From assembly GCA_018712365.1 (NCBI GenBank), contig DVHD01000113.1, positions 1 to 62,085 of the forward strand: 62,085 nt of DNA. Direction: 5' to 3'. Positions 217 to 37,255 of this stretch are shown here, one piece after another. Source of the stretch: Candidatus Limisoma gallistercoris. Its GTDB lineage: Bacteria > Bacteroidota > Bacteroidia > Bacteroidales > Muribaculaceae. The notes below the pieces were generated by a model, which saw only the letters and a program-made list of their open reading frames with translations, did not search any database and was not told the DNA's origin. The position numbers were made by a program, and so were the translations under genes. How positions within the stretch are numbered: position 1 is the first letter of the stretch; each line of letters opens with the position of its first letter.

Positions 217-288
217 GCCTCTGTAGTTCAACGGATAGAATGGAAGTTTCCTAAACTTTAGATCCGAGTTCGATTCTCGGCGGAGGTA
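217..288 (+). tRNA. tRNA-Arg(CCT)
   Basis: A 72-nt cloverleaf folded by hand: acceptor GCCTCTG/CGGAGGT, D stem GTTC/GAAT, anticodon stem GAAGT/ACTTT with loop TT-CCT-AA, T arm CCGAG-TTCGATT-CTCGG, discriminator A. Confidence 0.8.
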
Positions 289-343
289 CAAATCCCTTTT
301 TACCCATAACCTTTAACCTTTTAACCCCCATTAACCTGTTTCA

Positions 344-3636: not shown

Positions 3637-3727
3637 CGGAATATTTTCCATCTGTGCAACATCCCGCGCTGGTTTGTGCTGAAAAAATTTTGTATTGAAA
3701 ATTCAGGAAGGCTTTAATGGGAAATGC

Positions 3728-6700
3728 TTATGCCGGAAAATTCAGATTATCGGTGTATGTTTTATTGAGGACTGGTTGTGTTGAGAGTGACAGATCAGCC
3801 AAGAGTACCGCCGTTTCTTCTGTGTCTTTCGGCGCGTCTTTCGGCTTCCACGCAACGATGAACCTTACGGAGGCAGAGGCTACTTCATATCCTTTTTCTT
3901 TCCATTCCGTAAGTTCGGCTTGCATCTTTTGCGACAGTTTTGCGACCGGTTTACCCTCTATATTGTATAATGTAAAGCCATGGTACTTGAGCCTGTCCCC
4001 GCTTCTTAGCGACAATACGTCTCTCTTTATGTTTTTAAAAGCTCCTAAATTGACATCCTTGTGGGATAGTTGCAGGACAATTTCTTCCGGCATATTGTAT
4101 TGTGTCCTGTCAACGTTATGCCTGTCCGCTTTCAAGTTGTCAAAACAACCGCTGTTTGTATGGATTGATAACTGCTTTTTTGCGCGTGTAATTCCCACAT
4201 AGTATCGCCGCATCAGGTTCGCGTCTTTAGAGAAATTGCCGGAAAGCAGCATGTATACATTGTCGAATTCCCTGCCTTTCGCTTTGTGGATGGTCGATAC
4301 TGTCATGCCGGAGCCGTCAGTGTCGCAGAAGTCCTCTACAGATGATTCGAATACATATTCTTTGAAGTCGCTTATGTACTTTGCCCTGTTGGTTTGCTCG
4401 AAAAGTTGCATGCAGCGTTTCACGTATGCAAGGCTTACGCTTCTGCCGTAGTAGGTGAGTGTCGCTTGTTTTGCCTCGTTCCACAACACTTCGGGTATGC
4501 GCGGTGTTTTTATCCGCTTGCCGATATATCTTATGAAATATTTTATTTCAGCCATATTAAAAAAGCGGAATCCGTCCATCGACTGGATAAGGTTGCTGTT
4601 TATGCCATTTTTACGCAAAAGGGCATTGACGGTTACCGCTTCTTCGTTTGTCTGGGTGAGTATGCACGACGTTCCGGGAAGGCTGTCCTCTAAAATCTCG
4701 TTTACAAGCGGCTGGTACATGTAGTTTGAATAATGGCGTGTTATTGTCACCTGTCCATTTTCTTTTTGCATTGATATGATTGGTGTGCGTTTCATCCTTT
4801 GTCCGATTTTGCCCACGAATCCGTTGGCAAAATCAACCAAATGCCGGCTGCTGCGGTAATTTTCGGTCATTTCGACAATTTTGCTGCCGGGCATTTTTGA
4901 CAGTTGGTACATATATTTGGAGTCTGAACCCCGGAAATCAAAAATGTTTTGATCGTCGTCGCCTACGGCTATTACACGCATTTCCTCGTTGTGTGCCATA
5001 AGAGCTTCCACAAGTGCGTATTCTGAGGCACCCATGTCTTGTGCCTCGTCAATTACCAATACTGTTTTCCCTATTCTGTTGGGCTCCACTTCCCCTTGTC
5101 CGATCATTCCGGCAGCTTTTGCAACCACGTCCTTGGCATCTTCAAGATTGCCTATCCGTCCTAAAAGGTCGAAGCAATATGAATGGAAAGTCTTTATTTC
5201 GACAAAATGTGCAGCATTGCCGATAAGTTCCATAAGGCGCTGCTTGAACTCTGTCGCTGCCGCTCTTGAGAATGTAAGCATAAGGAGCTGCTCGTGTTTC
5301 ACGTCTTCGAGTAGCAGCAGGGAAGCAAGTTTATGCACAAGCACGCGTGTCTTTCCGCTGCCCGGTCCGGCTGCCACGACGATGCAGCGTGAATCCTTGT
5401 CGGAGATTATTTCCATTTGGCGTTTTGACAGCTGGTTGAACAATTGCTTGTATTTTTGCGGGGTGAGGTTTAGCTGTATCTCGTTGATTCTCTCTCCTTT
5501 GAAATATTTTGTGATGAATTTCTTGTAGTCCATATGGAAATAGTCATGTACGTATTCCAAAGCCGCGTCATAGTCCTTTACCATCAGATTGGCATATTCG
5601 CCTACGATATGTATTTGTTGGATTTTCTGCCGGTAGAATTCGTTAAGCATCCGGTAGTCCTCCTGTTTGTATCTCGTCTTGCTGTCTTTTGTCCGTCTTA
5701 TGTCCATTGCATTGTAGAGGACAAGAAATCCCCCTTCGAGTTTCAGCACACCGATTTTCGACAGGTACAGCAGGGCTTCTTCCACATCTTCTATCTGGAT
5801 GTCGTCGTGCCGGTTGAAAAGCGATTGTCCTTCTGCTTTAAATTTGTTTAATAGCTCCACTACGGAGAATTTGACAGCTATTTCTTGTTGTCCGTTTTTC
5901 TCGGCATCATCAGCTGTTCTGTATAACCATTCTATTGCAAAACGGCTTATTTCCAGCCTTTTTTCAAACCGTTTGGAGATTGATTCCAAATCTGTCTGGC
6001 GGCTTATCTCCATATTGTGTGCCGTATCCTCTTTTTTGCGGGTGTAGCCCTTTATGGAAAGGAAATACAGCAGTGTCAGTATGTCCTTTTCTTTTGAGGA
6101 GGTAATGCCGTCTTTCACGGCATTGTCGTTGAGTTGTTTGCAGGATATGTGCAATGCCCCGTCGGGTATGCAGCTTACTATGTATTGCTCTAACTTCGCA
6201 AAATGTTCAAGCAGCGACAATGATTTACGTTCCGGCTTCCCAAAATTCGGCAAATATGCGGAAATGTCCTTGCTGTCGGCTAAGATGCCGTCCTGTCGCA
6301 TCCGTTCTACAGCCGAAACGACTTCCTTTTTTGTCAGTCCCAGTATGTCGGCCAGATAGTCGATGCGTGATTCCGCCTCTGAGTTTTGGGCTTTTGATAT
6401 GTATTTCTGTGAAATGAGCGACTTGATTATCCTGACAGCTTGTTCTATCTCGTTTTTGTCAAAAAGGAGGGATTTTGATAGGCGTGTTCTCGCCTCGTCC
6501 ATATTCTTGACGGTTATGCCTGTCGCATAGACGTGTGGCACATTGTTGCCTCTTGTCAGATAGCCGTTTTGCTCAAGTGTCGCCAAGGCAGTGCGTACAC
6601 GAGTCTCAATGTCATGCACCGAGTCGTCCCATCCTGCCTGACGTGCGATTTCCAATGCGGAGCAGCATACTCTCGGGCGTTGTTTCGTCATATCTTTCAC

Positions 6701-8647
6701 GGCTTTCCATATTTGCTGTATTTCGCTGATGCTCAGCTTGGTCTGATTGAGCAGTATGAAATGCTTGTCAAGGTCGTTGTCGTTGTAAAGTACGTAGCAT
6801 CGTGCGCTTAGACTTGGGTCACGTCCCGCTCTTCCGGCTTCCTGCACATAATTTTCCAAAGAGTCGGAAATGTCGTAGTGCACCACAAGTCCCACATCCT
6901 GTTTATCAACTCCCATCCCGAATGCGGATGTGGCCACTATGATGTCCACTTGGCCCTTCATAAACTTGTCTTGGTTGGAAATTTTTTCGTCAGATTCCAT
7001 TTTGCCGTTGAAGGGCAATGCTTTGTATCCGTCTCGGGTCAGTTTTGCGGCCAATTCTTTTGTGCGTTTTGTGCGTGAGACATAAATTATTGTCGGGCAA
7101 TTGGCTTCGGCGACAAGGCTTCTGAGTTTTAAGTACTTTTCATTGTCGGTTTCCGTATGTATAACGGAATACCGCAGATTTGTCCGTGAGGCGGTCGAGG
7201 CAAACAGTTTCAGGTCTAAATCCAATGTCTGCCTGAAATAGTCGCAGATGTCCTGCACTACTTTCTGCTTTGCGGTGGCCGTAAAGCATGACACAGGTAT
7301 CGGATTGTGGCATTTTTTCTTCTGCTGGTATTCCTTGATGAATTTTCCTATGTAAAGGTAGTCTACTCTGAAGTCCTGTCCCCATGAAGAGAAGCAGTGT
7401 GCCTCGTCAATCACGAACCTTACAATGTGGCGCGCCATCAAAATCCGTTCGATGGTTTTTGAACGGAGCATTTCTGGTGATATGTATAATAAGGAGGCTT
7501 CCCCATCCCTCACTCTGTTGATTGACAATGCCCTGTTTATCGGGTCTAACAGCCCATTTATCGTGACGGCATCCGTGATGCCGCGTTCTGCAAGGTTGTC
7601 GACTTGGTCTTTCATCAGCGACTGCAGCGGTGAGATGACGACCGTAAGCCCATGTACGGTGCGTCCCTCGATTAATGCCGGCAATTGGAAAGTGAGCGAT
7701 TTCCCTCCTCCTGTCGGAAATATTGCGAGTAGGGATTTGCCATCAACGGCCGCTTGCACGGCTTGCTCCTGAAGCGTCTCTCCTGCAAATGTGCGGAATT
7801 GTCCATATCCGAAAAAGGATTTTAAATTTGAGTGTATGTCCAGTTGTGTGCCGCAATAGTTGCAGTCTCTGCCGCAGGCGGTGTGTCTTAGCAGTCTTAT
7901 GACAAATTCCACGTCGGGATAATTATTTAGCACCCATCCGGGGGTGATTGAACGGTAATCGGAAGTATCGACAAGAGCTAATGCGTATGCCAATTCGCAC
8001 GGATATTTTGTGATTATCATATCAAAGTCTGCATGTTGGCATATTCTCCCTTTGTAAGTGTTGATTATCAGCTCTGGCAGATTGCCGCTTGTGCCTCCGG
8101 CTTCTACCATCTGGAGAAATCCTGAGAACTCTTCTTTACCGTCGAGCAAGGATGCGAATATTTGTTGCTTTTCTTTCGGGAGATGGTTCCAGCGTTCTAT
8201 TTCGTCCATAAGCAAATCTTTCGCTTTTTCGCAATCGTTTACCGGATTGTTGATTTGCTCGCTGATTATTTTGTCGTCTTTTAATAGCCTGTGGTAGGGG
8301 CGTTCAGGGAACAACAGTGGCGACATATAAAGCGTGTCTACGAGGAGATATGCCGGTATGTATTCGTTGAACAGGTATTTTGCGTCGTGATGTATGATAT
8401 TGTGTCCACAAACATAATCAACTCCGTTCAAAAAATCAAGCAGTCTTTCTTTTGATGCTTTATGGAATATAGCACCGTCGTACCTGATAGCTCCTATGTC
8501 GTGGATTTTGCGGTCGGTAATGCCTACTTCGGCATCTATTACGGCATATTTGGAAGCATCGTATTTTTTAGGCACGGTATTGTTTCCGCTGACATTTGCT
8601 GTGCCATCAGAATTTTTAATTCCCCATAGTTTGTTCCATATAGACAT
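3728..8647 (-). CDS. 1639-aa fusion of a DEDD-type 3'-5' exonuclease, a RecQ-family SF2 helicase core and a UvrD/PcrA-type SF1 helicase
   Basis: Residues ~33-150 carry VIDAEV and GHNIIHHD (exonuclease motifs). Residues ~280-630 carry PTGGGKS, VIDEAHCFSSWGQDFR, FTATA, SAFGMGVD and QEAGRAGRD (RecQ). Residues ~1075-1500 carry AAGPGSGKT, VLVIDEAQDM, VGDDDQNIF, TIHKAKGREFD and YVGITRAKK (UvrD-like). Confidence 0.9.
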   Translation of the reverse strand: MSIWNKLWGIKNSDGTANVSGNNTVPKKYDASKYAVIDAEVGITDRKIHDIGAIRYDGAIFHKASKERLLDFLNGVDYVCGHNIIHHDAKYLFNEYIPAYLLVDTLYMSPLLFPERPYHRLLKDDKIISEQINNPVNDCEKAKDLLMDEIERWNHLPKEKQQIFASLLDGKEEFSGFLQMVEAGGTSGNLPELIINTYKGRICQHADFDMIITKYPCELAYALALVDTSDYRSITPGWVLNNYPDVEFVIRLLRHTACGRDCNYCGTQLDIHSNLKSFFGYGQFRTFAGETLQEQAVQAAVDGKSLLAIFPTGGGKSLTFQLPALIEGRTVHGLTVVISPLQSLMKDQVDNLAERGITDAVTINGLLDPINRALSINRVRDGEASLLYISPEMLRSKTIERILMARHIVRFVIDEAHCFSSWGQDFRVDYLYIGKFIKEYQQKKKCHNPIPVSCFTATAKQKVVQDICDYFRQTLDLDLKLFASTASRTNLRYSVIHTETDNEKYLKLRSLVAEANCPTIIYVSRTKRTKELAAKLTRDGYKALPFNGKMESDEKISNQDKFMKGQVDIIVATSAFGMGVDKQDVGLVVHYDISDSLENYVQEAGRAGRDPSLSARCYVLYNDNDLDKHFILLNQTKLSISEIQQIWKAVKDMTKQRPRVCCSALEIARQAGWDDSVHDIETRVRTALATLEQNGYLTRGNNVPHVYATGITVKNMDEARTRLSKSLLFDKNEIEQAVRIIKSLISQKYISKAQNSEAESRIDYLADILGLTKKEVVSAVERMRQDGILADSKDISAYLPNFGKPERKSLSLLEHFAKLEQYIVSCIPDGALHISCKQLNDNAVKDGITSSKEKDILTLLYFLSIKGYTRKKEDTAHNMEISRQTDLESISKRFEKRLEISRFAIEWLYRTADDAEKNGQQEIAVKFSVVELLNKFKAEGQSLFNRHDDIQIEDVEEALLYLSKIGVLKLEGGFLVLYNAMDIRRTKDSKTRYKQEDYRMLNEFYRQKIQQIHIVGEYANLMVKDYDAALEYVHDYFHMDYKKFITKYFKGERINEIQLNLTPQKYKQLFNQLSKRQMEIISDKDSRCIVVAAGPGSGKTRVLVHKLASLLLLEDVKHEQLLMLTFSRAAATEFKQRLMELIGNAAHFVEIKTFHSYCFDLLGRIGNLEDAKDVVAKAAGMIGQGEVEPNRIGKTVLVIDEAQDMGASEYALVEALMAHNEEMRVIAVGDDDQNIFDFRGSDSKYMYQLSKMPGSKIVEMTENYRSSRHLVDFANGFVGKIGQRMKRTPIISMQKENGQVTITRHYSNYMYQPLVNEILEDSLPGTSCILTQTNEEAVTVNALLRKNGINSNLIQSMDGFRFFNMAEIKYFIRYIGKRIKTPRIPEVLWNEAKQATLTYYGRSVSLAYVKRCMQLFEQTNRAKYISDFKEYVFESSVEDFCDTDGSGMTVSTIHKAKGREFDNVYMLLSGNFSKDANLMRRYYVGITRAKKQLSIHTNSGCFDNLKADRHNVDRTQYNMPEEIVLQLSHKDVNLGAFKNIKRDVLSLRSGDRLKYHGFTLYNIEGKPVAKLSQKMQAELTEWKEKGYEVASASVRFIVAWKPKDAPKDTEETAVLLADLSLSTQPVLNKTYTDNLNFPA

Positions 8648-8677
8648 TATTCAATAATGGTAAGTTGGTTTATGTTA

Positions 8678-8685
8678 CAAATTTA
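8678..8685 (-). promoter_or_regulatory. -7 box TAAATTTG for the helicase fusion gene
   Basis: Reverse complement of caaattta matches TAnnTTTG, about 31 nt upstream of the ATG at 8647. Confidence 0.45.
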
Positions 8686-8821
8686 AGCAAAAAGGATGTT
8701 GTTCATTGTATTGATGGTAAAATATTTGTCATTTAATGCCATGATGTTTCAGACTTATGAATTCTGATTTTTTCGGGCACGGTTTTTGTTGTGATTGGAC
8801 GGAAGATAGCAAATTATTGGC

Positions 8822-8829
8822 TACCTTTG
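8822..8829 (+). promoter_or_regulatory. -7 box TACCTTTG for gpmI
   Basis: Exact TAnnTTTG match 49 nt upstream of the ATG at 8878. Confidence 0.55.
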
Positions 8830-8877
8830 CACCCGGAATGATTGAATACGGAAAAACGAACTAAAAAACAGAATAAT

Positions 8878-10389
8878 ATGGGTAAAAAAGCATTGTTGAT
8901 GATTCTCGACGGCTGGGGAATCGGAAACCACACGAAAAGCGACGTGATTTACAGCACTCCTACTCCTTACTGGGATTCTTTGTTGGCGAAATATCCGCAT
9001 TCGCAGCTTCAGGCGAGCGGCGAGAATGTGGGTCTGCCCGACGGACAGATGGGCAACTCCGAGGTGGGCCACCTGAATATCGGCGCGGGGCGTGTCCTCT
9101 ATCAGGACCTTGTGAAAATCAACAAGTCGATTGCCGACAAGTCGATTCTAAAGAACAAGGAAATCGTTTCGGCCTTCACATACGCAAAGGAGAGCGGAAA
9201 GGCAATCCACTTCATGGGACTGACTTCCGACGGAGGCGTACACAGCTCGCTGGAGCATCTGTTCGCTTTGTGCGACATCGCTAAGGAATACGGTTTGGAG
9301 AAGGTTTATCTCCACTGCTTTATGGACGGCCGCGACACCGACCCGAAGAGCGGCAAAGGATTCATCGAGCAGGTAGAGGCTCATTGCAAGCAGTCGGCCG
9401 GCGTGATTGCCTCCATCGTGGGACGTTTCTACGCCATGGACCGCGACAAGCGTTGGAACCGCGTGAAGGAGGCTTACGATTTGCTCGTGGAGGGCAAGGG
9501 CAAGCAGGCAGACGATATGGTTAAGGCCATGCAGGAATCCTACGACGAGGATGTGACCGACGAGTTCATCAAGCCGATCAACAATTCCACGGTAGACGGT
9601 ACAATCAAGGATGGCGACGCCGTAATCTTCTTCAACTACCGCAACGACCGCGCGAAGGAGCTTACCATCGCTCTGACGCAGAAGGACATGCCGGAAGAGG
9701 GGATGAAGACAATCCCGGGATTGCAGTACTACTGCATGACTCCTTACGACGCTTCGTTCAAGGGCGTGCATATCCTTTTCGACAAGGAAAACGTGCAGGA
9801 CACTCTTGGCGAATACCTTTCGCGCAACGGCAAGAAGCAGCTCCACATAGCGGAGACCGAGAAATATGCCCACGTTACGTTCTTCTTCAACGGCGGGCGC
9901 GAGGCTCCGTTCGAGGGCGAGGACCGCATACTTGTGCCGTCGCCGAAGGTTGCCACCTACGACCTGAAGCCGGAGATGAGCGCATACGAGGTGAAGGACA
10001 AGCTCGTGGAGGCCATCGGTACGGAGAAATACGATTTCATCGTAGTCAACTACGCCAACGGCGACATGGTGGGACACACCGGCGTGTACGAGGCTATCGA
10101 GAAGGCTGTGGTCACAATCGACAATTGCGTGAGGGATACCGTGGAGGCTGCCAAGGCTCATGGCTACGAGGTGATAATCATAGCCGACCACGGAAACGCC
10201 GACAACGCCATCAATGCCGACGGCACGCCCAATACGGCGCATTCGCTCAACCCGGTGCCGTGTGTCTACGTGACGGAAAAGACCGGCGTGGAAATCCACA
10301 ATGGTATCCTTGCCGACGTTGCTCCGACAATTCTTAAGATTATGGGCATGGAGCAGCCTTCCGACATGACAGGCAAGGCATTGTTCTAA
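8878..10389 (+). CDS. gpmI: 2,3-bisphosphoglycerate-independent phosphoglycerate mutase
   Basis: [27 protein letters not shown] and ADHGNAD motifs. Start set at the internal ATG 8878, downstream of the promoter box. Confidence 0.95.
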
Positions 10390-10416
10390 GCGCCGGGGGC
10401 TTGAAAAGTCTGTGAT

Positions 10417-10460
10417 AAAAAAAGATTGGCGGAAAGCAAAACTCCCGCCAATCTTTTTTT
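10417..10460. terminator. Bidirectional rho-independent terminator between convergent gpmI and korB
   Basis: Hairpin GATTGGCGG-12 nt-CCGCCAATC, flanked by an A-run on the left and a T-run on the right. Confidence 0.8.
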
Positions 10461-10476
10461 ATTAATCTCCGGTGAC

Positions 10477-11490
10477 CTATTTCACTTCCCACGTCTCTCC
10501 GGCGAGAATCATCTCGCGGAGGGTGTGGTAAGGCTTTTTGCCTTCAACTTCGTGGGTCTGGCGGTCGACTTCCTCGTCGTAGACGGGAGCGTCGACATCA
10601 CGTATCACCCCGATGGCCAACGGCATAGTGTGTCCGTCCATCATCGCAAGCTGCTGGTGGAGGAGGTTGCTTTGGCAATGAGCGTCGTGGGTGAGCACGT
10701 CGTCAATCGTGTAGCCGTCCTGTCCTACCACGACCGCTTTCAGTCCGAAGCCGTCCTGCACGATGCCTTTCTCCTTTTCTTTTCCGAAAAGCATTTTCTC
10801 GCCATGTACAAGGTGGATTGTGTGGTCGGCACGAAGCTCTCTGTCGGAAACGAAGCTGTAGATTCCCTGATTGAAAATCACGCAGTTCTGAAGCATCTCG
10901 ACGACCGATGTGCCTTTATGGCGTGCAGCCGCAACCATCACTTCCTGCGAAGTCTTGAGCTCAACGTCGAGGCTGCGCGCGAAGAACGTCCCACGCGCGC
11001 CGAACACCAGCTCGGCCGGAATGAACGGGTCCTCGGTAGTGCCGTAAGGCGACGACTTGGAGACGAAACCACGCTCGGAAGTAGGGGAGTACTGTCCCTT
11101 TGTCAACCCATAAATGCGGTTGTTGAGCAGCACCATATTGATGTTGACGTTACGCCGCACGGCGTGGATGAAGTGGTTGCCTCCGATGGCCAAACCGTCG
11201 CCGTCGCCCGAAATCTGCCATACGGTCATTTCCGGGTTGGCCACCTTGAATCCGGTAGCCACGGCCGCCGCGCGTCCGTGGATGGTGTGGAATCCGTAGG
11301 TGTTCATATAATACGGCAGACGCGAGCTGCAGCCGATGCCTGAAATCACGGCAGTCTTCTCGGGCGGCACGCCTATTTCGGCCATGGCCTTGTGAAGCAC
11401 GTTAAGGATAGCGTGGTCGCCGCAGCCGGGACACCAACGCACGTATTGGTCGCTCTTATAGTCGGATGCTTGATATTTCTGTTCTTCCAT
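10477..11490 (-). CDS. korB: 2-oxoglutarate/2-oxoacid:ferredoxin oxidoreductase, beta (TPP-binding) subunit
   Basis: WCPGCGDHAIL and GDGDGLAIGGNHFIHA are the TPP-binding signature of OFOR beta subunits. Confidence 0.9.
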   Translation of the reverse strand: MEEQKYQASDYKSDQYVRWCPGCGDHAILNVLHKAMAEIGVPPEKTAVISGIGCSSRLPYYMNTYGFHTIHGRAAAVATGFKVANPEMTVWQISGDGDGLAIGGNHFIHAVRRNVNINMVLLNNRIYGLTKGQYSPTSERGFVSKSSPYGTTEDPFIPAELVFGARGTFFARSLDVELKTSQEVMVAAARHKGTSVVEMLQNCVIFNQGIYSFVSDRELRADHTIHLVHGEKMLFGKEKEKGIVQDGFGLKAVVVGQDGYTIDDVLTHDAHCQSNLLHQQLAMMDGHTMPLAIGVIRDVDAPVYDEEVDRQTHEVEGKKPYHTLREMILAGETWEVK

Positions 11491-11494
11491 AGCT

Positions 11495-13336
11495 TTAACC
11501 CTCCATTACTTTTTTGACACCATCGATTATTTCCTGAACGAGGAACGGCTGTCCCTGCACCTTGTTGATACGGCTGATCTTGACATCCGGGAATTTGGCC
11601 TGAAGGTAGTCGGCAAATTGTCCGGAGTTCAGTTCGGCAACAATGACATTCTTGTAGCGTGCGAGAGTCTCGCCGGTGTTCTTAGGCAGCGGGTTGATAT
11701 AGCGGAAATGCGCCATAGCCACTTTCTTACCTTCTGCGCGCAAAGCGTCGACAGCCTCGTGGATGTGTCCGAAAGTTCCGCCCCATCCTACTACGAGTGT
11801 GTCGGCATCCTCGTCGCCGTAAGGGTCCTTGCCGGGAATCTCGTTGGCTATATAGTCGATTTTTGCCTGACGGCAGCGTACCATCTTCTCGTGGTTTACG
11901 GGGTCGGTGGAAATGGCACCAGTGACGGAGTCCTTTTCCAATCCGCCGATGCGGTGCATCAGTCCCGGAGTGCCCGGTATTGCCCAGTAGCGCGCGAAAG
12001 TCTCGTCGCGGTCGTAAGGATGCCATCCTTCGCGGCGGTCTTCCGGCACGAAGCGCGGCTTGATTTCCGGGTATTCATCGTCGTCGGGCAGGCGGAATGC
12101 CGAAGAGCCGTTGGCGATGAAAGCGTCGGTGAGCAGGATGACAGGGGTCATGTGCTCGATGGCGATACGCGCGGCCTCGAAAGCCATCTGGAAGCAGTCG
12201 GTAGGCGATGCCGCGGCGAGGACTACAAGCGGGCATTCGCCGTTGCGCCCGTAGAGAGCCTGACGCAAGTCGGTCTGCTCGGTCTTCGTCGGAAGCCCGG
12301 TAGACGGTCCTCCGCGCTGCACGTCGATAACCACTAAAGGCAGCTCGGCCATGACGGCCAGTCCCAGTCCCTCGCTCTTCAGAGCCAGTCCCGGGCCGGA
12401 AGTGGTGGTCACGGCAAGGTCGCCGGCAAACGAAGCGCCGATAGCCGAACAGATGCCGGCAATCTCGTCTTCCATCTGGCAAGCCTTCACACCCAAGTCC
12501 TTGCGTTTGGCAAGCTCGTGGAGAATGTCGGTAGCCGGAGTAATCGGGTAGCTTCCGAGGAACAGCGGCCGCCCCGACTTTTCGGATGCGTAGATAAGTC
12601 CCCACGCCGTGGCTGTGTTGCCGTTGACGTCGGTATAAACGCCCGGCTTCGCCTCGCTCGGCTCGATGCGGTAGGTGGAGACTGAGGCGTGTATGTTGTG
12701 GCCGTAGTCGTAGCCCGCGCAAATCACCTTTGCGTTGGCCTCGTAGATGGCAGGCTTCTTGGCAAACTTATTCTTAAGCAGGTGCAAGGCCGGTTTCAAC
12801 GGACGGTCGAACAGCCAGCACACCAGACCGAGCGCGAACATGTTCTTGCAGCGGAGCATCGATTTCATGTCCAGCCCTGAATCGGCAAGCGCCGATTTCA
12901 CCATCGTGGAGATGGGCACTTCCACAACCTGAGCGTCCAGCCCGATTTCCTTGTAAGGGTCGTTGGTCGTGTAAAGCGCTTTTTTCAAGTCCTGCTCGCG
13001 GAAAGAGTCGATGTCGACAATCGCCACACCGCCTTTCTTGAGGAAGCAGGCATGGCGTTTCAAAGCCGCGGGGTTCATGGCCACAAGCACGTCGGCCTCG
13101 TCGCCCGGCGTATGCACGCCTTTACCTATGTGGACTTGAAACCCGGAGACACCGCTGAGAGTGCCTTGCGGGGCGCGGATTTCCGCCGGATAGTCGGGGA
13201 AAGTGGAAATCTGGTCGCCCACCCCGGCAGAGACGTTCGAGAAAATGTTGCCCGCAAGCTGCATTCCGTCCCCGGAGTCGCCGGAGAAACGCACTACAAC
13301 ATTTTCAAGAGTTTTTACATTGGTTTTTTCTAACAT
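11495..13336 (-). CDS. korA: 2-oxoglutarate/2-oxoacid:ferredoxin oxidoreductase, fused gamma-alpha subunit
   Basis: A 613-aa protein with an N-terminal gamma-like domain (FSGDSGDGMQLAGNIF) and an alpha domain (GSYPITPATDILH). It sits 4 nt upstream of korB. Confidence 0.9.
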   Translation of the reverse strand: MLEKTNVKTLENVVVRFSGDSGDGMQLAGNIFSNVSAGVGDQISTFPDYPAEIRAPQGTLSGVSGFQVHIGKGVHTPGDEADVLVAMNPAALKRHACFLKKGGVAIVDIDSFREQDLKKALYTTNDPYKEIGLDAQVVEVPISTMVKSALADSGLDMKSMLRCKNMFALGLVCWLFDRPLKPALHLLKNKFAKKPAIYEANAKVICAGYDYGHNIHASVSTYRIEPSEAKPGVYTDVNGNTATAWGLIYASEKSGRPLFLGSYPITPATDILHELAKRKDLGVKACQMEDEIAGICSAIGASFAGDLAVTTTSGPGLALKSEGLGLAVMAELPLVVIDVQRGGPSTGLPTKTEQTDLRQALYGRNGECPLVVLAAASPTDCFQMAFEAARIAIEHMTPVILLTDAFIANGSSAFRLPDDDEYPEIKPRFVPEDRREGWHPYDRDETFARYWAIPGTPGLMHRIGGLEKDSVTGAISTDPVNHEKMVRCRQAKIDYIANEIPGKDPYGDEDADTLVVGWGGTFGHIHEAVDALRAEGKKVAMAHFRYINPLPKNTGETLARYKNVIVAELNSGQFADYLQAKFPDVKISRINKVQGQPFLVQEIIDGVKKVMEG

Positions 13337-13380
13337 AAATCTTTAATTTAAGACTGTTTTATGCCTGTTTGTACTGTCGT

Positions 13381-13388
13381 GCAAAGTT
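13381..13388 (-). promoter_or_regulatory. -7 box TAACTTTG for korAB
   Basis: Reverse complement of caaagtta matches TAnnTTTG, 45 nt upstream of the korA ATG. Confidence 0.5.
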
Positions 13389-13464
13389 AGGCTTTTTCCG
13401 ACAAAACAAACAATCTATTCAGAAAATTTGTTACCGATTCCAAATTTTTCACACGCCGCTTCCT

Positions 13465-13580
13465 TCCGCCGCAAAAACATTCAGCAGATTGCCACAAAAA
13501 CACGCAACAAATTACCGCAGAAACACTCAACGGATTGCCACAAAAACATGCAACAGATTTTGCAAATCGGTGAAAAACAA
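13465..13580. repeat. About five degenerate tandem copies of a 23-nt unit (GATTGCCACAAAAACAYGCAACA)
   Basis: Read directly: ..ccgcaaaaacattcagca / gattgccacaaaaacacgcaaca / aattaccgcagaaacactcaacg / gattgccacaaaaacatgcaaca / gattttgcaaatcggtgaaaaaca. The array lies in the divergent korA / lplA intergenic region. Confidence 0.7.
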
Positions 13581-13874
13581 GTGATTGAAAAAACACTTGT
13601 CTGCTAAAAAAGATGAGGAATTAAGGACTTAATTTTATGAGAGTTAGGGATAAGTAGGCGGGAAATATTACGGAGTTGAAGGCATGGATAAGTCCCTGCT
13701 TGCTGCTGCACTCCGCTTGCTGCAGTCTCCATGAAGTTCTTCCGCTCTGCGGTTAACTGTCCCGCAATTTGCGGCACAAGTGCAAACTTCTGACTCCCCG
13801 CTTCTGGCTTTGTGCCATGGGAAAATATGTTGTGAAACATAGGGGTGGGCTTTTGCGGTTATGCGGAAAAGCCG

Positions 13875-13882
13875 TAATTTTG
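13875..13882 (+). promoter_or_regulatory. -7 box TAATTTTG for the lplA-gcv cluster
   Basis: Exact TAnnTTTG match 22 nt upstream of the ATG at 13904. Confidence 0.5.
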
Positions 13883-13903
13883 AAAATTAAATCCGATCGA
13901 ATC

Positions 13904-14887
13904 ATGAAATTGGTGAAATTATCCGGCAACTACCTCCCGAGACGGCTTACATTCTACCTCGCGATGGAGGAGTATGTGGCCCGCGAAATGCCAGCGGGAC
14001 ACGACTATTTCTTCACGTGGCAGTCGGAGCCTACGGTGATAGCCGGGCGCAACCAATTGATTGAGGCTGAAGCCGACACGGAATATTGCCGCCGTAACGG
14101 CATCGCCGTGGTGCGCCGTAAAAGCGGAGGAGGCTGCGTTTATTCCGACATGGGCAACTTGATGCTGTCGTGTGTCACCGACGGCGGGCAGGTGGGGTTT
14201 GTTTTCGACCGCTATCTGCGCCGCATAGCCCTTGCCTTGTCGAAGAAAGGCATTGCCGCGCAAGTGTCGGGAAGGAACGACATCACGGTGGAAGGGCGGA
14301 AAGTGTCGGGAAACGCGTTCCTGCAATTGCCGGGCGGGCGGTGCATAATCCACGGCACACTGCTGTGCGAGACTGACCTCGGCCGGATGGAGCGCGCCCT
14401 CACGCCCGCGGCCGGCAAGCTGGAAAGCAAGGGGGTGGCATCTGTGCGCAGCCGTGTGGTCAATCTGAAAGATATTGCCGGGACGAGGACGGAGGAAATG
14501 CGCCTGTGGATGGAGCGCGAGATGTGCGACGGCGAGACGCTTCTCGGCGATGATGCCGTAGGGCGCATAAAGGAAATCGAGAAAACCTACCTCGACCCGC
14601 TTTTCGTAGGCGGGAAGAATCCGCCGTTCACGGTAACTCGCCGTGTAAGGACGGCCGGCGGGGAAGTCTGCCTTAAAGCCGATGTCAGGAACGGCATAAT
14701 AAAATCCGTGTCGCTCACCGGCGACTTCCTGTCATGCGGCGACCCTTCCGTAGCGGTAGGCAAAGCCCTTGCCGGACGCCGTTTTTCGGAAGAGGAAGCC
14801 AGAAAATCGCTGGAGGGCATAGATATGCGGCAATATATCTCCGGGCTTACGACGGAGAAATTCATAGAGACATTATTCAAACCTTGA
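13904..14887 (+). CDS. lplA: Lipoate-protein ligase A
   Basis: VRRKSGGGCVYSDMGN and GRKVSGNAF motifs. Start set at MKLVKL (13904), downstream of the promoter box. Confidence 0.9.
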   Translation: MKLVKLSGNYLPRRLTFYLAMEEYVAREMPAGHDYFFTWQSEPTVIAGRNQLIEAEADTEYCRRNGIAVVRRKSGGGCVYSDMGNLMLSCVTDGGQVGFVFDRYLRRIALALSKKGIAAQVSGRNDITVEGRKVSGNAFLQLPGGRCIIHGTLLCETDLGRMERALTPAAGKLESKGVASVRSRVVNLKDIAGTRTEEMRLWMEREMCDGETLLGDDAVGRIKEIEKTYLDPLFVGGKNPPFTVTRRVRTAGGEVCLKADVRNGIIKSVSLTGDFLSCGDPSVAVGKALAGRRFSEEEARKSLEGIDMRQYISGLTTEKFIETLFKP

Positions 14888-14902
14888 AATAAGAATCAAA
14901 AT

Positions 14903-15994
14903 ATGGAAAACTTGCAAAAGACCTGCCTTTACGACCGCCACGTGGCGGCAAACGCCAAGATGAGCCCCTTCGGCGGGTTCATGATGCCTATCGAATATAC
15001 CGGCATAATAGCCGAGCACAATGCCGTCAGGCATGCAGCCGGGATGTTCGACGTTTCGCACATGGGCGAAATTTTCGTCACCGGGGCTGATGCGGAGAAA
15101 TTCGTGAACCACATATTCACGAACGACGCTTCCGCCCTGACCCCGGGGAAGATACAGTACGGCATGATGCTGTATCCCGACGGCGGCACGGTCGACGACC
15201 TGCTGGTCTACCGTATGGATGGCGGGCGGTGGCTGCTCGTGGTGAACGCCGCCAACATAGCGAAAGACTATGGGTGGATTGTGGAAAACGCCAAAGGCTA
15301 CGACGTGGCGCTCGACAACGCTTCGGAACGCTGGGCGCAGATAGCGTTGCAGGGCCCTGATTCCGAACGCATTGCCGGAGAAACTCTCGGTCTCGACTTG
15401 TCAGATCTTGCATTCTACACTTTTAAGGAGACAACGTGGGATGGCATGCCGTTGATAGTTAGCCGCACGGGATATACCGGAGAGGACGGCTTCGAGTTCT
15501 ATGCAGCCCCCGAATCGATAATCAAGATGTGGGACAAGCTGGCCGCCGCAGGAGTTACGCTCTGCGGATTAGGATGCCGCGACACGCTGCGCTTCGAAGT
15601 AGGCCTTCCGCTCTACGGCCACGAGCTGAGCGCGGAAATATCGCCGGTGGAGGGCGGCTTGGGAATGTTTGTCAAGACCGACAAAGCGGAATTCATCGGC
15701 AAGGAAGCTATCGTAAGGCAAAAGACGGAGGGAATCACAAAGAAAGTGGTAGGCATAGAACTTGCAGACAAGGCCATACCCCGCGCCGGCTACGACGTTG
15801 AGGCCGACGGAAAGGCGATTGGCAAGGTCACTACCGGCTACCAGTCGATTTCCACCGGAAAGAGCGTGTGCATGGCGTTGATTGACAAGCAATACGCCAC
15901 AATCGGCCAACCGGTAGAAATCAGAATCCGGAAAAAAGCGTTCAAAGGGACGGTATGCAAAAAACGTTTCTACGACAAGAATTACAAGAAATAA
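14903..15994 (+). CDS. gcvT: Glycine cleavage system T protein (aminomethyltransferase)
   Basis: LYDRHVAANAKMSPFGGFMMPIEY, GMFDVSHMGEI and SRTGYTGEDGFE. Confidence 0.95.
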   Translation: MENLQKTCLYDRHVAANAKMSPFGGFMMPIEYTGIIAEHNAVRHAAGMFDVSHMGEIFVTGADAEKFVNHIFTNDASALTPGKIQYGMMLYPDGGTVDDLLVYRMDGGRWLLVVNAANIAKDYGWIVENAKGYDVALDNASERWAQIALQGPDSERIAGETLGLDLSDLAFYTFKETTWDGMPLIVSRTGYTGEDGFEFYAAPESIIKMWDKLAAAGVTLCGLGCRDTLRFEVGLPLYGHELSAEISPVEGGLGMFVKTDKAEFIGKEAIVRQKTEGITKKVVGIELADKAIPRAGYDVEADGKAIGKVTTGYQSISTGKSVCMALIDKQYATIGQPVEIRIRKKAFKGTVCKKRFYDKNYKK

Positions 15995-16028
15995 TTACAA
16001 ATTACAAACCTCATAAAATTAAACAATC

Positions 16029-16418
16029 ATGGCAAAGACAATCGAAGGATTATACTACAGCGAATCTCACGAGTGGGTGAAGATTGAAGGCGAATACGGA
16101 TATGTGGGCATCACCGACTACGCGCAGCAGGCGATGGGCAACATCGTGTATGTCGACATGCCGGAAGAAGGCGACGAGTTCGGCGCGGGCGAGGAGTTCG
16201 GCGCGGTGGAGAGCGTGAAAGCCGCCAGCGACCTTATTTCGCCGGTTTCGGGCGTTGTGGAGGAAATCAACGAGGCCTTGGAGGACCAGCCGGAGCTAAT
16301 CAACAAGGACGCATACGGGGCGTGGATAATGAAAGTGAAACTCAGCGACCCGGCAGAGACAGAATCGCTTATGGACGCAGCGGCATACGCCGGTTTTTGT
16401 GAAAAAGAAGAACACTGA
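16029..16418 (+). CDS. gcvH: Glycine cleavage system H protein
   Basis: YSESHEWVK, GITDYAQ and the lipoyl-lysine motif VESVKAASD. Confidence 0.95.
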   Translation: MAKTIEGLYYSESHEWVKIEGEYGYVGITDYAQQAMGNIVYVDMPEEGDEFGAGEEFGAVESVKAASDLISPVSGVVEEINEALEDQPELINKDAYGAWIMKVKLSDPAETESLMDAAAYAGFCEKEEH

Positions 16419-16422
16419 CGAC

Positions 16423-17754
16423 ATGAGCTACCCATACTTTCCGCATACCGGCGACGACATCGCCGGCATGCTCGGACGGATAGGCGCGAAGTCGCTTGAC
16501 GACCTTTATGCCGATGTCCCTTCCGAAGTGCTTTACAACGGCGATTACGACCTTCCCGACGCTATGCCGGAAATGGAGGTGCGCCGTTATTTCGACAGTC
16601 TTGACAGGAAGAACCGCCGCTTGACAGTGTTCGGCGGCTGCGGAGCCTACGACCACTACAGCCCGGCCGTGATACCGGCGTTGATAAGCCGCGCGGAATT
16701 CCTTACGGCATATACGCCTTATCAGGCCGAAATATCGCAAGGCACGCTGCGCTACATCTTCGAGTTCCAGACAATGATGGCCGAGCTTACCGGAATGGAC
16801 TGCGCCAACGCCTCGATGTACGACGGCGCTACCTCGGCCGCCGAGGCCATGCTTATGGCAAAGGCCGCCACAAGGAAGAAGAACCGTGTGCTCGTGTCGG
16901 GGGCGATGCCCGGCAACGTTATTGAAGTGGTGGCTACCTATATGAAGTACCACGGAGTGGAAATGACAGTCACCCCATTGGACAACGGAGCCACCGACAT
17001 TGCGGCAATCGTGAAAGAGTTGCAGGTCGGCGACGTGGCCGGAGCGCTTGTGCCGGGCGTGAACAGATACGGAATCATAGAGGACCTGACGGGGCTTGCC
17101 GATGCCGTACACGGCACGAAAGCCCTGCTGGCAGTATACAGCGACCCTTCGGCGCTCGCGGTGCTTAAAACTCCGGGCGAATGGGGAGCCGACATAGCGT
17201 GCGGCGACGCGCAGACACTCGGCATACCGCTCAATTTCGGCGGTCCATACGTGGGTTTCCTCGCTTGCAGGAAAGAATTGGTGCGCAAGCTGCCGGGACG
17301 CATTGTGGGAGCCACTACCGACATCGACGGCCGGCGCGCGTTCGTGCTTACGCTGCAAGCCCGCGAGCAGCACATCCGCCGGGAGAAAGCCACAAGCAAC
17401 ATCTGCTCTAACCAGTCGCTTATGGCATTGTATGTGACGGTATATCTTTCGCTTATGGGCAAAGAAGGGATGAAGAGGGTGAACGGCCTGTCGTATGGCG
17501 GAGCCCATTACCTTCATAAACAACTGCTCGCTACCGGGAAATTCAGCGAGGCTTTCGGCGGACGGCCGTTCCTGAAAGAATTCACCTTGCGAACTCCGCT
17601 ACCGGCCGGGAAACTGCACGCCGCGCTTGCCGACGGCGGCTATCTGGCGGCAATGCCGATGGGCGGCGATTTGGTTTCGTTCTGCGTCACTGAGAAACGC
17701 ACCCGCGAGGAAATCGACAGTATGGTTGAACTGATTAAGAAAATCGAGCTATGA
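16423..17754 (+). CDS. gcvPA: Glycine dehydrogenase (decarboxylating) subunit 1
   Basis: [23 protein letters not shown] motif. Start set at MSYPYFPHT (16423), just after the gcvH stop. Confidence 0.93.
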
Positions 17755-19202
17755 AATATTACGACAAACTGATATTCGAGCTGTCGCAACCGGGGCGTTG
17801 CGGCTATTCGCTGCCCGAAAACCGGTGGGAGGAGACTTGCGAAGGGCTGCCAGCCGCATTGCGGCGCGGTGGAGAGGCACGTCTGCCGGAAGTGAGCGAG
17901 CCCGACGTGGTGCGCCACTACACCAACCTCTCGAACATGAATTTCGGGGTTGACACCGGATTCTACCCGTTAGGAAGCTGCACGATGAAATATAACCCGA
18001 AAATCAACGAGGAAATAGCGTCGATGCCGGGATTCGCGTGCCTGCATCCACTACAACCGGAGCAGACGGCGCAGGGGGCGTTGCAACTCTACCACGACCT
18101 CGGCAAGGCGCTCTCGGCAATCACCGGGATGGCGGAGTTCACCCTCAATCCGTTCGCCGGGGCGCACGGCGAGCTTACCGGGCTGATGATAATGCGCCAG
18201 TACCACCTGCAACGCGGCGATCTGAAGCGCACCCGCGTGATTGTCCCCGACAGCGCGCACGGCACCAACCCGGCGAGCGCGGCGGTATGCGGTCTGGAGG
18301 TCGTAGTGGTGAAGTCGAAGGCTGACGGTACAATCGACACCGACGAGCTTGCCGCATTGCTCGACGACACCATAGCCGGAATAATGATGACCAACCCTAA
18401 CACGCTCGGACTGTTCGAGAAAGAGATATTGAAGATAGCGGAGATGGTACACGGTTGCGGAGGCCTGCTCTACTACGACGGCGCTAATTTCAACCCGCTG
18501 CTCGGCAAGGTGCGCCCCGGCGACATGGGCTTCGACATACTGCACCTGAACCTTCACAAGACGTTCTCCACGCCTCACGGAGGCGGAGGGCCGGGTTCCG
18601 GCCCGGTGGGAGTGGCCGCGCGGCTTGCGGAACTGTTGCCTTATCCGCGCGTGACGTTCGACGGCAGCCGCTACCACGTCGTCGGCGACAACGGCAAGTC
18701 GGCGGGGCGCGTCTCTGGATTTGCGGGTAATTTCACCGTATTGCTGAAAGCCTGCGCCTACATCCTGTCGCTCGGCAAACAGAACATCAAGCTGGCCGGA
18801 GCGTTGGCCACACTCAACGCCAATTACATAAAGGAAAGCCTGAAAGACTGCTACAAGCTGCCGATAGACACGCTTTGCAAACACGAATTCGTGTTCGACG
18901 GCCTTGCCGACAAGTCGACCGGCATCACGACGCTCGACGTGGCGAAACGGTTGCTCGATTACGGATTCCATGCGCCGACGGTGTATTTCCCGCTGCTATT
19001 CCACCAGTCGATAATGATAGAGCCGACGGAAACGGAATCGAAAGAGACGCTCGACGCTTTCATCGCCGTGATGAGGAAGATAGCGGAAGAAGCGGCATCC
19101 GAGCCCGACACTTTGCGCGAAGCCCCGCACAGCACGCCGGTTCGCCGTCTGGACGAGACAACGGCCGCAAAGAATCCGGTATTGACTTACTTTGAAATGT
19201 GA
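17751..19202 (+). CDS. gcvPB: Glycine dehydrogenase (decarboxylating) subunit 2
   Basis: [10 protein letters not shown] and the PLP-lysine region [22 protein letters not shown] overlap with gcvPA. Confidence 0.95.
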
Positions 19203-19207
19203 TTGAA

Positions 19208-20548: not shown

Positions 20549-20675
20549 CATCAGTCTCTTAAACAGGACAATGGAACGACTTTCTTCAATCCAATCTGTA
20601 GAAAGTTATGCATCAATAGTCCCATACTGGCATAATCGGTGAAGTTGCCAAGCAGCACTAAATCACGTAATTACA

Positions 20676-20721
20676 AAATCATTTCCTGTTTTTGAGGTAA
20701 ATCACTTCCTGTTTTTGAGGT
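20676..20721. repeat. Two tandem copies of a 23-nt unit AAATCAYTTCCTGTTTTTGAGGT
   Basis: aaatcatttcctgtttttgaggt is followed directly by aaatcacttcctgtttttgaggt. A partial AAATCAC lies just upstream at about 20661. Confidence 0.8.
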
Positions 20722-20769
20722 GGATTGGTCTGTGTCGTGGCATCAGCGAGGCTGGAGATATTCCGTATT

Positions 20770-24815: not shown

Positions 24816-24865
24816 CTGTGGAGCGGACGTGCCGTCCGCAGGTTCAGGTTATTGGTTAAAGGTTA

Positions 24866-24907
24866 AAAGGTCAGGGGTTACTGTCGTGTAGCCCCTGACC
24901 TTTTTTT
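24866..24907 (+). terminator. Rho-independent terminator after gyrB
   Basis: Hairpin GGTCAGGGG-14 nt-CCCCTGACC followed by TTTTTTT. Confidence 0.8.
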
Positions 24908-24934
24908 CACCGGCTATTTTACGGATGCCGTTTT

Positions 24935-25531
24935 TTACGCTTCAATTCTGTATAACTCTAATGTCAAATACATTCTTCTTGTCGGCAAAGCGATATCGGT
25001 GTCCGTCTGGTACAAAAAGCCATATCTCGAATAAAATTTATTAGCACGTTTATCTTCACTATTTAAGGAGTCCACGGTTATGAACTGACATCCTGTTATG
25101 TCGTAGGAAATAAAAGTATTTGTGACGAAATCTAAAATTTGTTCTCCTACTCCCTTTGACTGCATATCTTTCCTTACACCGAGATGACCTATATTAATGG
25201 CGGGAAATGATGTTTGGCTGCGGAATATCGGTATATACTCATCATTAAATCTCGAAGAAGATTGTTGGATGAATTCTTCTTTATCGTCAGAATTGTCAAT
25301 AATCATAGCATCGTTTGACAAGGTAAATATCGCAATGATTTCCCCGGTATCAACTTTTCTTGCACAATAAGATGAAAAATAATGATATTTTGAACAAAGA
25401 AAGATGTCGTTATGAAAGAAGTCATCCAATTTATCAACACCACAAGAAAAAGAGGACAACTCTTCGCGGTCCTCTTCATTAAGTCTTGTTATGGATATCT
25501 CAATATCCGAGAATCGGGTTTTTGCCGCCAT
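24935..25531 (-). CDS. GNAT acetyltransferase resembling TacT/AtaT/KacT-type toxins
   Basis: N-terminal FSCGVDKLDDFF motif (the F-x-C-G...L..F pattern of DUF1778-associated GNAT toxins). Acetyl-CoA motif A is HLGVRKDMQSKGVGEQIL, with NKFYSRYGF near the C-terminus. Very AT-rich. The start could be 25531 or 25552. Confidence 0.75.
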   Translation of the reverse strand: MAAKTRFSDIEISITRLNEEDREELSSFSCGVDKLDDFFHNDIFLCSKYHYFSSYCARKVDTGEIIAIFTLSNDAMIIDNSDDKEEFIQQSSSRFNDEYIPIFRSQTSFPAINIGHLGVRKDMQSKGVGEQILDFVTNTFISYDITGCQFITVDSLNSEDKRANKFYSRYGFLYQTDTDIALPTRRMYLTLELYRIEA

Positions 25532-25697: not shown

Positions 25698-25730
25698 CTT
25701 AATTTGCTTATTGATTAGTTTTTACTAAGA

Positions 25731-25838: not shown

Positions 25839-25862
25839 CTATCGTAGAAAACCGAAGAAGGC

Positions 25863-37238: not shown

Positions 37239-37255
37239 TATAAATTAGAAGGAAT

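Follow-up and report, generated by a model that had tools for sequence, protein, structure and literature searches.

Organization of the locus

We analyzed a stretch of 62,085 nucleotides (the window) from Candidatus Limisoma gallistercoris, a member of the Muribaculaceae in the order Bacteroidales (GenBank assembly GCA_018712365.1, contig DVHD01000113.1), and in it a single gene that encodes a large helicase fusion. An uninterrupted open reading frame (ORF) at positions 3728-8647 of the minus strand codes for a polypeptide of 1639 amino acids (aa). With high confidence this protein is a single chain composed of a domain with a DEDD-type exonuclease fold, a RecQ motor, an array of winged helices, a UvrD motor and a C-terminal domain. 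Downstream, with the same orientation, are rplU and rpmA; upstream is gpmI, which is divergent. These are the flanks named in an earlier description made from the sequence alone (hereafter the original prediction).

The gene had also been described, by eye, as AT-richer than its neighbours, and the computed values agree. Its GC content is 0.456 and its GC at third codon positions (GC3) is 0.524, against GC3 values of 0.67-0.74 in the neighbouring non-ribosomal genes and a GC content of 0.526 for the window outside the gene. The gene is low in GC, but some stretches elsewhere in the window have even less. The promoter-like box ascribed to it, TAAATTTG, which resembles the Bacteroidetes -7 element (TAnnTTTG), is present upstream of the start codon inside the islet described below. 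The window holds seven copies of this box where 2.55 are expected, so that taken alone it is weak evidence and only suggestive of a promoter.

A second low-GC patch (0.42-0.46) was noticed at positions 24000-28200. It contains genes for a Vsr very-short-patch-repair endonuclease (25863-26378), a GNAT acetyltransferase (24935-25552) and a leucine-rich-repeat protein (26615-28138). Vsr is commonly found with a Dcm-type methyltransferase or a restriction-modification (RM) system.

Domain architecture of the fusion protein

Both helicase motors, which had been read from short motifs, scored in profile searches, and every motif quoted for them and for the N-terminus occurs in the 1639-aa translation. 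The first motor is covered by the Pfam families DEAD (residues 292-466, E = 1e-28) and Helicase_C (residues 504-609, E = 1e-21) and belongs to the RecQ family by the NCBIfam model TIGR00614 (270.3 bits against a cutoff of 219.8, residues 275-638). Among proteins of known structure it matches E. coli RecQ (1oyw, 2e-54), human RECQ5, BLM, RECQ1 and WRN. The second motor begins with UvrD-helicase at residue 1076 (8e-32) and continues through AAA_19 and UvrD_C/UvrD_C_2 up to residue 1497, where a tail of about 140 aa follows. Scores of 111.5 bits for PF00580 and 65.5 bits for PF13361 place this motor in the UvrD-like branch of superfamily 1 (SF1A), and its structural matches are PcrA (1pjr, 3e-26), UvrD and Rep.

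We aligned 29 family members, all less than 77.5% identical to one another, and found the classical motifs of both motors to be invariant or nearly so. In the RecQ motor, which belongs to superfamily 2 (SF2), this concerns motifs 0, I (PTGGGKS, with K316), Ia, II (DEAH, residues 414-417), III, V and VI; the conserved motifs of the UvrD motor are I (GPGSGKT, with K1099), Ia, II (DEAQD), III (GDDDQ), IV, V and VI.

The narrower, equivalog-level models were all missed. For bacterial RecQ the scores were 312.7 bits against a cutoff of 640.2 (TIGR01389) and 244 against 1015 (PRK11057). On the side of the second motor they were 137 against 911 for PcrA, 122 against 1144 for UvrD, 108 against 951 for Rep and 100 against 543 for helicase IV, while the RecB equivalog gave 71.8 bits, far under 696. 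The accessory domains RecQ_Zn_bind, RQC and HRDC had no Pfam match at E <= 0.01 in the whole protein or at E <= 10 in its middle region.

The N-terminal part required comparison of structures. No Pfam model matched residues 1-281, even at E <= 10. None of the 29 family members gave a significant match to any Pfam model there (two had a weak DNA_pol_B_exo1 match, E = 0.03), and the N-terminal family profile found nothing significant among PDB sequences. The AlphaFold2 model of the region, built from the 29-sequence alignment, had a mean predicted local distance difference test (pLDDT) of 82.6 and a predicted template modelling score (pTM) of 0.80, with pLDDT above 90 across most of residues 31-100 and 141-220. 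Foldseek placed this model closest, among PDB structures, to Staphylococcus aureus DinG (8zef_A, E = 1.9e-4, probability 1.0). Further PDB matches were the exonuclease domains of P. calidifontis PolB, E. coli Pol II and phi29, as well as EXD2, Rv2179c-like proteins, RNase AS and Rrp6. Against BFVD, a collection of predicted viral structures, there were five matches at E <= 1e-3, the named ones being RNase H-like, YprB-like, DnaQ and polymerase exonuclease domains.

Four acidic residues, D38, E40, D88 and D138, are invariant in the 29 sequences, which are 38-64% identical over the N-terminal region. Their assignment to Exo motifs follows the sequence pattern alone: D38 and E40 form an Exo I motif (DxE), the invariant H82-N83..H87-D88 is Exo II-like, and D138 closes an Exo III-like segment, N133-N134-P135-V-N-D138, in which N133, N134 and P135 are also invariant, as is D104-T105-L106. 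The invariant histidines of the region are H62, H82, H87 and H119. The predicted model supports a DEDD/RNase-H-like 3'-5' exonuclease assignment at the level of the fold. The original claim of a DnaQ-like exonuclease therefore stood in respect of the fold and the four acidic residues but not in respect of Pfam and profile searches. Residues 1-33, in front of this domain, are variable, probably disordered and missing from distant homologs. The helical module behind it has four invariant cysteines (C203, C258, C262 and C265), which could form a putative zinc site.

The middle region was modelled with moderate confidence (450 residues, pLDDT 72, pTM 0.49). Its model consists of repeated helix-strand-helix-helix-strand-strand units. 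The top Foldseek match was RPC62, which has four extended winged helices (E about 2e-3, not significant), and the single winged-helix regulators PadR, MecI/BlaI and MarR also matched, none of them significantly. Pfam at E <= 10 gave weak helix-turn-helix hints alone, and the family profile of the region had no significant match among PDB sequences. The model suggests about four winged helices in tandem, which would serve DNA binding or scaffolding and not catalysis. The C-terminal domain is the least conserved part of the protein, with five invariant columns; it had no Pfam match at E <= 10, none in 28 family members and none among PDB sequences. The features of the locus are collected in Table 1.

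Table 1. Features of the fusion gene and of the islet that contains it (window coordinates).
Feature	Position	Strand	Basis
Islet, 5081 bp, missing from conspecific strains	3689..8769	.	blastn of L035, L033 and L038 against the window
Coding sequence of the exonuclease-RecQ-winged-helix-UvrD fusion	3728..8647	-	ORF, Pfam, NCBIfam; intact in six conspecific contigs
TAAATTTG, Bacteroidetes -7-like promoter box (TAnnTTTG), inside the islet	8678..8685	-	31-38 nt 5' of the ATG
N-terminal extension, residues 1-33	8549..8647	-	pLDDT <50, not conserved
RNase-H-like / DEDD-type 3'-5' exonuclease fold, residues 34-160	8168..8548	-	AlphaFold2, Foldseek, invariant residues
Helical module, residues 161-270	7838..8167	-	AlphaFold2 model, family alignment
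RecQ-family SF2 motor, residues 271-625	6773..7837	-	Pfam, NCBIfam, PDB match, motif alignment
Array of about four winged helices, residues 626-1065	5453..6772	-	AlphaFold2, Foldseek
UvrD/PcrA-like SF1A motor, residues 1066-1497	4157..5452	-	Pfam, NCBIfam, PDB match, motif alignment
C-terminal domain, residues 1498-1639	3731..4156	-	family conservation
5' remnant of the gene, first 251 nt, in allele E (L025, L039, L040)	8397..8647	-	alignment to the window
3' remnant of the gene, last 247 nt, in allele E (L025)	3728..3974	-	alignment to the window

Alleles at the rplU-gpmI junction

Many contigs encode a GpmI protein 97-100% identical to that of the window, which makes a comparison within the species possible. 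In contigs L035, L033 and L038 the homology to the window ends at position 3688 and restarts at 8770. The islet between these points consists of the coding sequence with 39 bp downstream and 122 bp upstream. It is therefore a single-gene islet, as proposed, with exact borders and no room for a partner ORF. In the empty allele, carried by L035, 45 bp stand in place of the 5081 bp.

A census of the junction was taken over 23 contigs that encode one identical GpmI protein. The helicase gene was present in 12 of them, in one case together with an extra gene, between it and gpmI, for a YhcG/DUF1016 PD-(D/E)xK nuclease. Four contigs had an empty junction, five had a 268-aa gene with a TM2-domain gene, and in two an outer-membrane beta-barrel cassette replaced the interior of the helicase gene. 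Contig L025 also has the beta-barrel cassette in this position. Conspecific strains thus carry at least five alleles between rplU and gpmI. The presence of the gene varies between close strains and an empty site exists, which is the pattern sought in a defence gene; the original prediction had named close relatives as the place to look for such a site, and it was found even in conspecific strains with an identical GpmI.

In the beta-barrel allele both ends of the helicase gene remain as remnants (Table 1; L025 is the sole such contig that spans the 3' side), so the helicase is older than that replacement. The replacing segment of 2.1 kb (L025 5342-7458) is 96.4% identical to window positions 36195-38305 and has 35% GC. 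On the plus strand this window segment holds ORFs 36567-37238 and 37256-37798, which encode an outer-membrane beta-barrel protein of 223 aa and a protein of 180 aa. Because of this identity the segment behaves as a movable or duplicating cassette; no obvious transposase accompanies it.

Six conspecific copies of the helicase gene are intact and without stop codons. Each is separated from the window copy by 28-40 nt differences, which alter 17-25 codons synonymously and 10-14 non-synonymously; the islet flanks have diverged to a similar degree. The excess of synonymous changes points to purifying selection. We also considered whether the islet is an integrative mobile element or transposon and rejected this. 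It contains no integrase or transposase gene, no direct or inverted repeats bounding it were found, and the junction sequences show replacement and not target-site duplication. The sole tRNA gene, tRNA-Arg (CCT) at window positions 217-289, lies upstream of obg; some 3.4 kb separate it from the islet, whose borders it does not touch. By these comparisons the helicase gene is a dispensable, segregating but functional accessory gene at a hotspot, and not a recent one-off insertion.

Several other features of the junction are worth recording. A direct repeat of about 50 bp (TTTTCGGGCACGGTTTTTG.TTTGAT...GATAGCAAATTATT) flanks the YhcG/DUF1016 cassette in L036 (7500-7555 and 8860-8915) and equals the gpmI-proximal border sequence, at about 8765-8825 of the window. 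Since the other alleles end in the same sequence, recombination at the hotspot may use it repeatedly as a site. Small TM2-domain genes (about 100 aa) recur at the junction in L033 (8464-8775) and L038 (4939-5250), and in Clostridia (L041-L044) such a gene lies directly upstream of the helicase; this recurrence may be a coincidence or a link. In a sister lineage of Candidatus Limisoma-like relatives (L027-L032), whose gpmI is 98% identical, rplU is not adjacent and the region upstream of gpmI is variable too. Found there are a gene for an FG-GAP/Big_2 protein of 2276-2300 aa, a cluster with Peptidase_C25 or, at a distance of a few kb, an RM system of the DpnII type. The hotspot therefore extends past this species.

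Distribution and inheritance of the family

A search for full-length relatives returned at least 8000 clusters at 90% identity. The relatives among the matches listed are about 1600-1650 aa long, and the named ones are called 'RecQ family ATP-dependent DNA helicase' in RefSeq. Proteins 75-77% identical to that of the window occur in Bacteroides, Phocaeicola, Parabacteroides, Coprobacter, Barnesiella, Muribaculum and Xylanibacter. Other relatives belong to Marinilabiliales and Flavobacteriales, and those of Candidatus Goldiibacteriota, Clostridia/Christensenella and Conchiformibius (Neisseriaceae) are 47-50% identical. Full-length relatives at about 30% identity lie on plasmids of Aliarcobacter, Paracoccus, Rhizobium, Croceicoccus, Allochromatium, Thiothrix, Sulfitobacter and Scytonema. 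Such a range, from Flavobacteriales and Clostridia to proteobacterial and cyanobacterial plasmids, contradicts the earlier alternative of a repair helicase specific to Bacteroidales. Phage records gave ordinary RecQ-core matches only, with no full-length relative.

The profile of the N-terminal domain matched 1635 representatives at 50% clustering, and the complete ones are about 1600 aa long, so this domain is tied to the present architecture. All catalytic motifs are kept unchanged in relatives whose identity to the window protein is 47-77%.

How faithfully is the gene inherited along its host lineages? Copies labelled as B. fragilis, Muribaculum and Xylanibacter are 90-94% identical, and those from five gut Bacteroidales families are all 83-88% identical; over the first three labels together with Coprobacter and Parabacteroides the range is 84-94%. 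Between B. fragilis and Coprobacter the helicases share 86% identity and the DnaK proteins 79%; between Coprobacter and UMGS27 the values are 83% and 91.5%. One exact protein, labelled MULTISPECIES [Bacteroidales], occurs on 672 contigs. The helicase identities are flat, at 83-94%, and do not track those of DnaK or the hosts, which indicates that gut Bacteroidales have repeatedly exchanged the gene, horizontally or allelically. Being 75-77% identical to each of these copies, the window copy is a more distant branch that sits at a different site and has a foreign composition.

Two records of B. finegoldii were set aside. The copy of strain JCM 13345 (L012, AP027244.1) looked like a pseudogene, but its neighbours are fragmented likewise. 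Because of this, and because the same genes are single ORFs in L006 and L049, we ascribe the splits at L012 3400-16900 to indel errors of the assembly. The B. finegoldii 'plasmid 6' was not accepted as plasmid carriage, since its left flank is a segment that is chromosomal in JCM 13345.

Gene neighbourhoods

A scan of contigs with exact query peptides as patterns yielded 20 loci of the family; it gives no measure of prevalence. An all-against-all BLAST of the neighbours at 19 loci revealed no conserved neighbour or partner gene. The neighbours include a type III RM system and MksE/DUF3584 genes. A Clostridia locus has on its variable side either HATPase_c_3, Z1 and DUF4420 genes or a serine recombinase. 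Genes of the SLFN_AlbA_2/HATPase_c_4 and PDDEXK_4 families and insertion sequence (IS) elements also lie near family members. Family members also adjoin WYL-RtcB-RlaP, a ParE toxin-antitoxin pair, a type I RM system, IS66 with VapBC, and WYL with Cas6. On the Aliarcobacter megaplasmid pACIB the helicase gene directly adjoins parAB and rep. When 137 neighbour proteins from 18 loci were searched with PADLOC, there were strong matches to components of type III, IIG and I RM systems, and also to a UG5-nitrilase DRT, NsnAB and several PDC candidates. It is a fair statement that the gene typically lies at the boundary of housekeeping genes and variable, defence-rich or mobile DNA.

In several gut Bacteroidales the stretch between the helicase gene and dnaK ranges from 0 kb (adjacent genes) to about 6 kb and has variable content (L045, B. 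fragilis, 8001-20761; L051, Coprobacter, 8001-20384; L010, 10001-18051; L012, 10001-16894). Its cargo includes the SLFN_AlbA_2, PDDEXK_4, IS and WYL-RtcB-RlaP genes mentioned above. This suggests that the helicase gene and dnaK are conserved anchors around an integration hotspot.

Comparison with known systems

The original prediction could match this domain order to no named defence system, and PADLOC did not change that: it gave generic helicase matches to DpdF, PsyrT and GajB, with no partner genes. Below, the protein is compared with its nearest analogues.

WRN resembles the N-terminal half of the fusion in the order of a DEDD-fold exonuclease, a RecQ motor and then winged-helix DNA-binding modules, which in the fusion are predicted ones, and its helicase core matches residues 275-651 (E about 1e-36). 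Unlike WRN, the fusion has no detectable RQC, HRDC or RecQ Zn-binding sequence, and it carries an Asn where the general base of DEDDy and DEDDh enzymes sits. Its model, of moderate confidence, contains about four winged helices and WRN has one; behind these the chain adds a whole motor of the UvrD type and one domain more. S. aureus DinG (8zef, 9ii8), which matches the N-terminal model best in structure, likewise has an exonuclease N-terminal to an SF2 ATPase. However, the sequence identity is 15%, the motor of DinG is XPD-like and not RecQ, and there is no second motor.

RecBCD, AddAB and AdnAB are similar in that a nuclease works together with two ATP-driven motors, of which one or both are UvrD-like SF1A, and RecBCD also destroys foreign linear DNA. 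These are multi-subunit enzymes with PD-(D/E)xK nucleases, in contrast to a single chain with a DEDD fold. Their motors are SF1A plus SF1B or inactive, whereas the fusion pairs an SF2 RecQ motor with SF1A.

Gabija also pairs a helicase with a nuclease, and the C-terminal motor matches GajB models (E down to 4.5e-48). However, neither the islet nor the 19 loci contain a GajA/OLD partner, and the GajB matches are generic UvrD similarity. The best PADLOC matches were DpdF (319 bits) and PsyrT (258 bits), over residues 270-657, scores equal to that of ordinary RecQ (TIGR01389, 313 bits). The DpdF equivalog NF041063 scored 216.6 against a cutoff of 550 bits, and no dpd cluster lies beside the fusion gene. 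For PsyrTA or RqlHI there is no PsyrA or RqlI partner, and the 39 bp and 122 bp outside the coding sequence leave no space for one.

The single-protein helicase-nuclease defence genes (Nhi, Hna and DdmD-type) are also stand-alone or nearly stand-alone fusions in variable regions; their products use PD-(D/E)xK-type or other nucleases and have a single motor. To our knowledge, none of them has the order exonuclease, RecQ, winged helices, UvrD, and their models are absent from the best 25 PADLOC matches. The fusion protein is not a member of DinG, RecBCD/AddAB/AdnAB, Gabija or the single-protein helicase-nuclease genes. With WRN-type fusions it shares the domain order, its winged helices being predicted and RQC and HRDC being undetected by sequence.

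Possible role of the fusion protein

Given that the gene is accessory and kept under purifying selection, what does its product do? RecQ and UvrD, the characterised relatives of its two motors, translocate 3'->5'. By analogy with the properties of relatives, the protein may load on free DNA ends, gaps, or branched intermediates of replication and recombination. The winged-helix array would grip the duplex, both motors, if they have the polarity of their relatives, would unwind or reel in the DNA, and the N-terminal exonuclease would receive the 3' strand. Such a protein would be the single-chain counterpart of two-part machines like RecBCD/AddAB, Gabija GajAB and WRN.

The role that we favour, tentatively and at a little short of an even chance, is that of a stand-alone barrier against invading DNA, that is, the replication intermediates of phages, plasmids, and integrative and conjugative elements, and not of core repair. 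Immunity is favoured by the variability among strains, the purifying selection and deviating composition of the gene, the horizontal exchange, the carriage on plasmids, the absence of partner genes and the neighbourhoods.

A number of points weigh against immunity. An invariant Asn, N133, occupies the usual position of the His or Tyr general base of DEDDh and DEDDy enzymes. Because of this replacement, and because no sequence profile scores, nuclease activity of the modelled N-terminal domain is plausible but unproven; from the alignment, H62, H82, H87 or H119 might stand in for the missing base. Nor does the RecBCD model transfer readily to a pair of motors that share one polarity. The family is already named in RefSeq; PADLOC has no dedicated model for it, no defence-database model or functional study was found, and the literature searched contained no publication on this architecture. 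Among the neighbours, ABC transporters, IspD and sugar-nucleotide enzymes are some of the most frequent Pfam families, and the cases of defence neighbours are qualitative. No more than a few kb separate the gene from dnaK in B. fragilis, B. finegoldii, Coprobacter and UMGS27; since this position is kept, defence genes may be drawn to the hotspot and not to the helicase. Finally, conservation of the protein is very high by the standard of defence genes, and in most genomes the GC content of the gene follows that of the host.

The last of these points suit another view, the main rival and close behind the first, which we regard as a serious possibility although somewhat improbable. Here the protein is an accessory genome-maintenance enzyme, a WRN-like exonuclease-RecQ combined with a UvrD motor, that processes stalled forks, D-loops, gaps and breaks of the host; its patchy distribution would come from dispensability, and the damage could be, for example, oxidative or due to nitroimidazoles. 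Each identifiable domain comes from families of repair and recombination (RecQ, UvrD/PcrA, DnaQ/PolB-type exonuclease, winged helices), and the RefSeq name is that of a RecQ family helicase. The high sequence conservation and the host-like GC agree with this view, as does the dnaK-proximal synteny across several Bacteroidales families, where in Bacteroides nfo lies a few genes upstream. The recQ genes of B. fragilis, of which strain 638R has three, have been tied to metronidazole survival (Paul et al. 2011, via PMC6344619), and the fusion may be among them. However, the gene is missing from about half of the conspecific strains, whose sites are cleanly empty or replaced. Its tree is incongruent with that of DnaK, near-identical copies occur across families, it is carried by plasmids, and it is found repeatedly beside RM, CRISPR, toxin-antitoxin and recombinase genes. 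The equivalog cutoffs for RecQ, UvrD, PcrA and Rep were all missed.

It is unlikely that the gene serves the maintenance of plasmids or mobile elements, aiding their replication, transfer or establishment (for example if it processed transferred DNA, resolved intermediates or countered the nucleases of the host), with the chromosomal copies as remnants. The location beside parAB and rep on pACIB agrees with such a role, and so do the full-length copies on plasmids of the other seven genera named above, the ParA/ParG/SSB genes downstream in one B. finegoldii record and the serine recombinase nearby in Clostridia. However, the islet has neither integrase, terminal repeats nor target duplication, and the tRNA gene is distant. 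At the 19 loci no mobility gene is conserved alongside, most copies are chromosomal with housekeeping genes on at least one side, and none was found in phage records. A functionless, decaying passenger, as the loss or replacement of the gene in many conspecific strains might suggest, is very improbable, since all six conspecific ORFs are intact with synonymous changes in excess and the catalytic motifs are invariant at 47-77% identity to the window protein.

Returning to the barrier against invading DNA, the protein may represent a new class of single-polypeptide immune effector, a twin-motor helicase-exonuclease that would recognise and degrade phage or plasmid replication intermediates without a partner. 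It would circulate horizontally as a one-gene cassette among gut Bacteroidales and, more diverged, in other phyla. We offer this more specific proposal with some reserve, as falling below an even chance. If the gene is a defence gene, a very common and unlisted system would be added to the immunity of the dominant order of the human gut, and its role would help explain differences between strains in susceptibility to phages and plasmids. Whatever its role, the joining of motors from two superfamilies, with the same polarity in their relatives, to a proofreading-type exonuclease is unusual, and it makes the fusion a natural single-chain test case for the coupling of motor and nuclease known from WRN, RecBCD and Gabija. 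The locus itself is a natural experiment, since within one species some strains have the gene, some a disrupted version of it and others an empty site.

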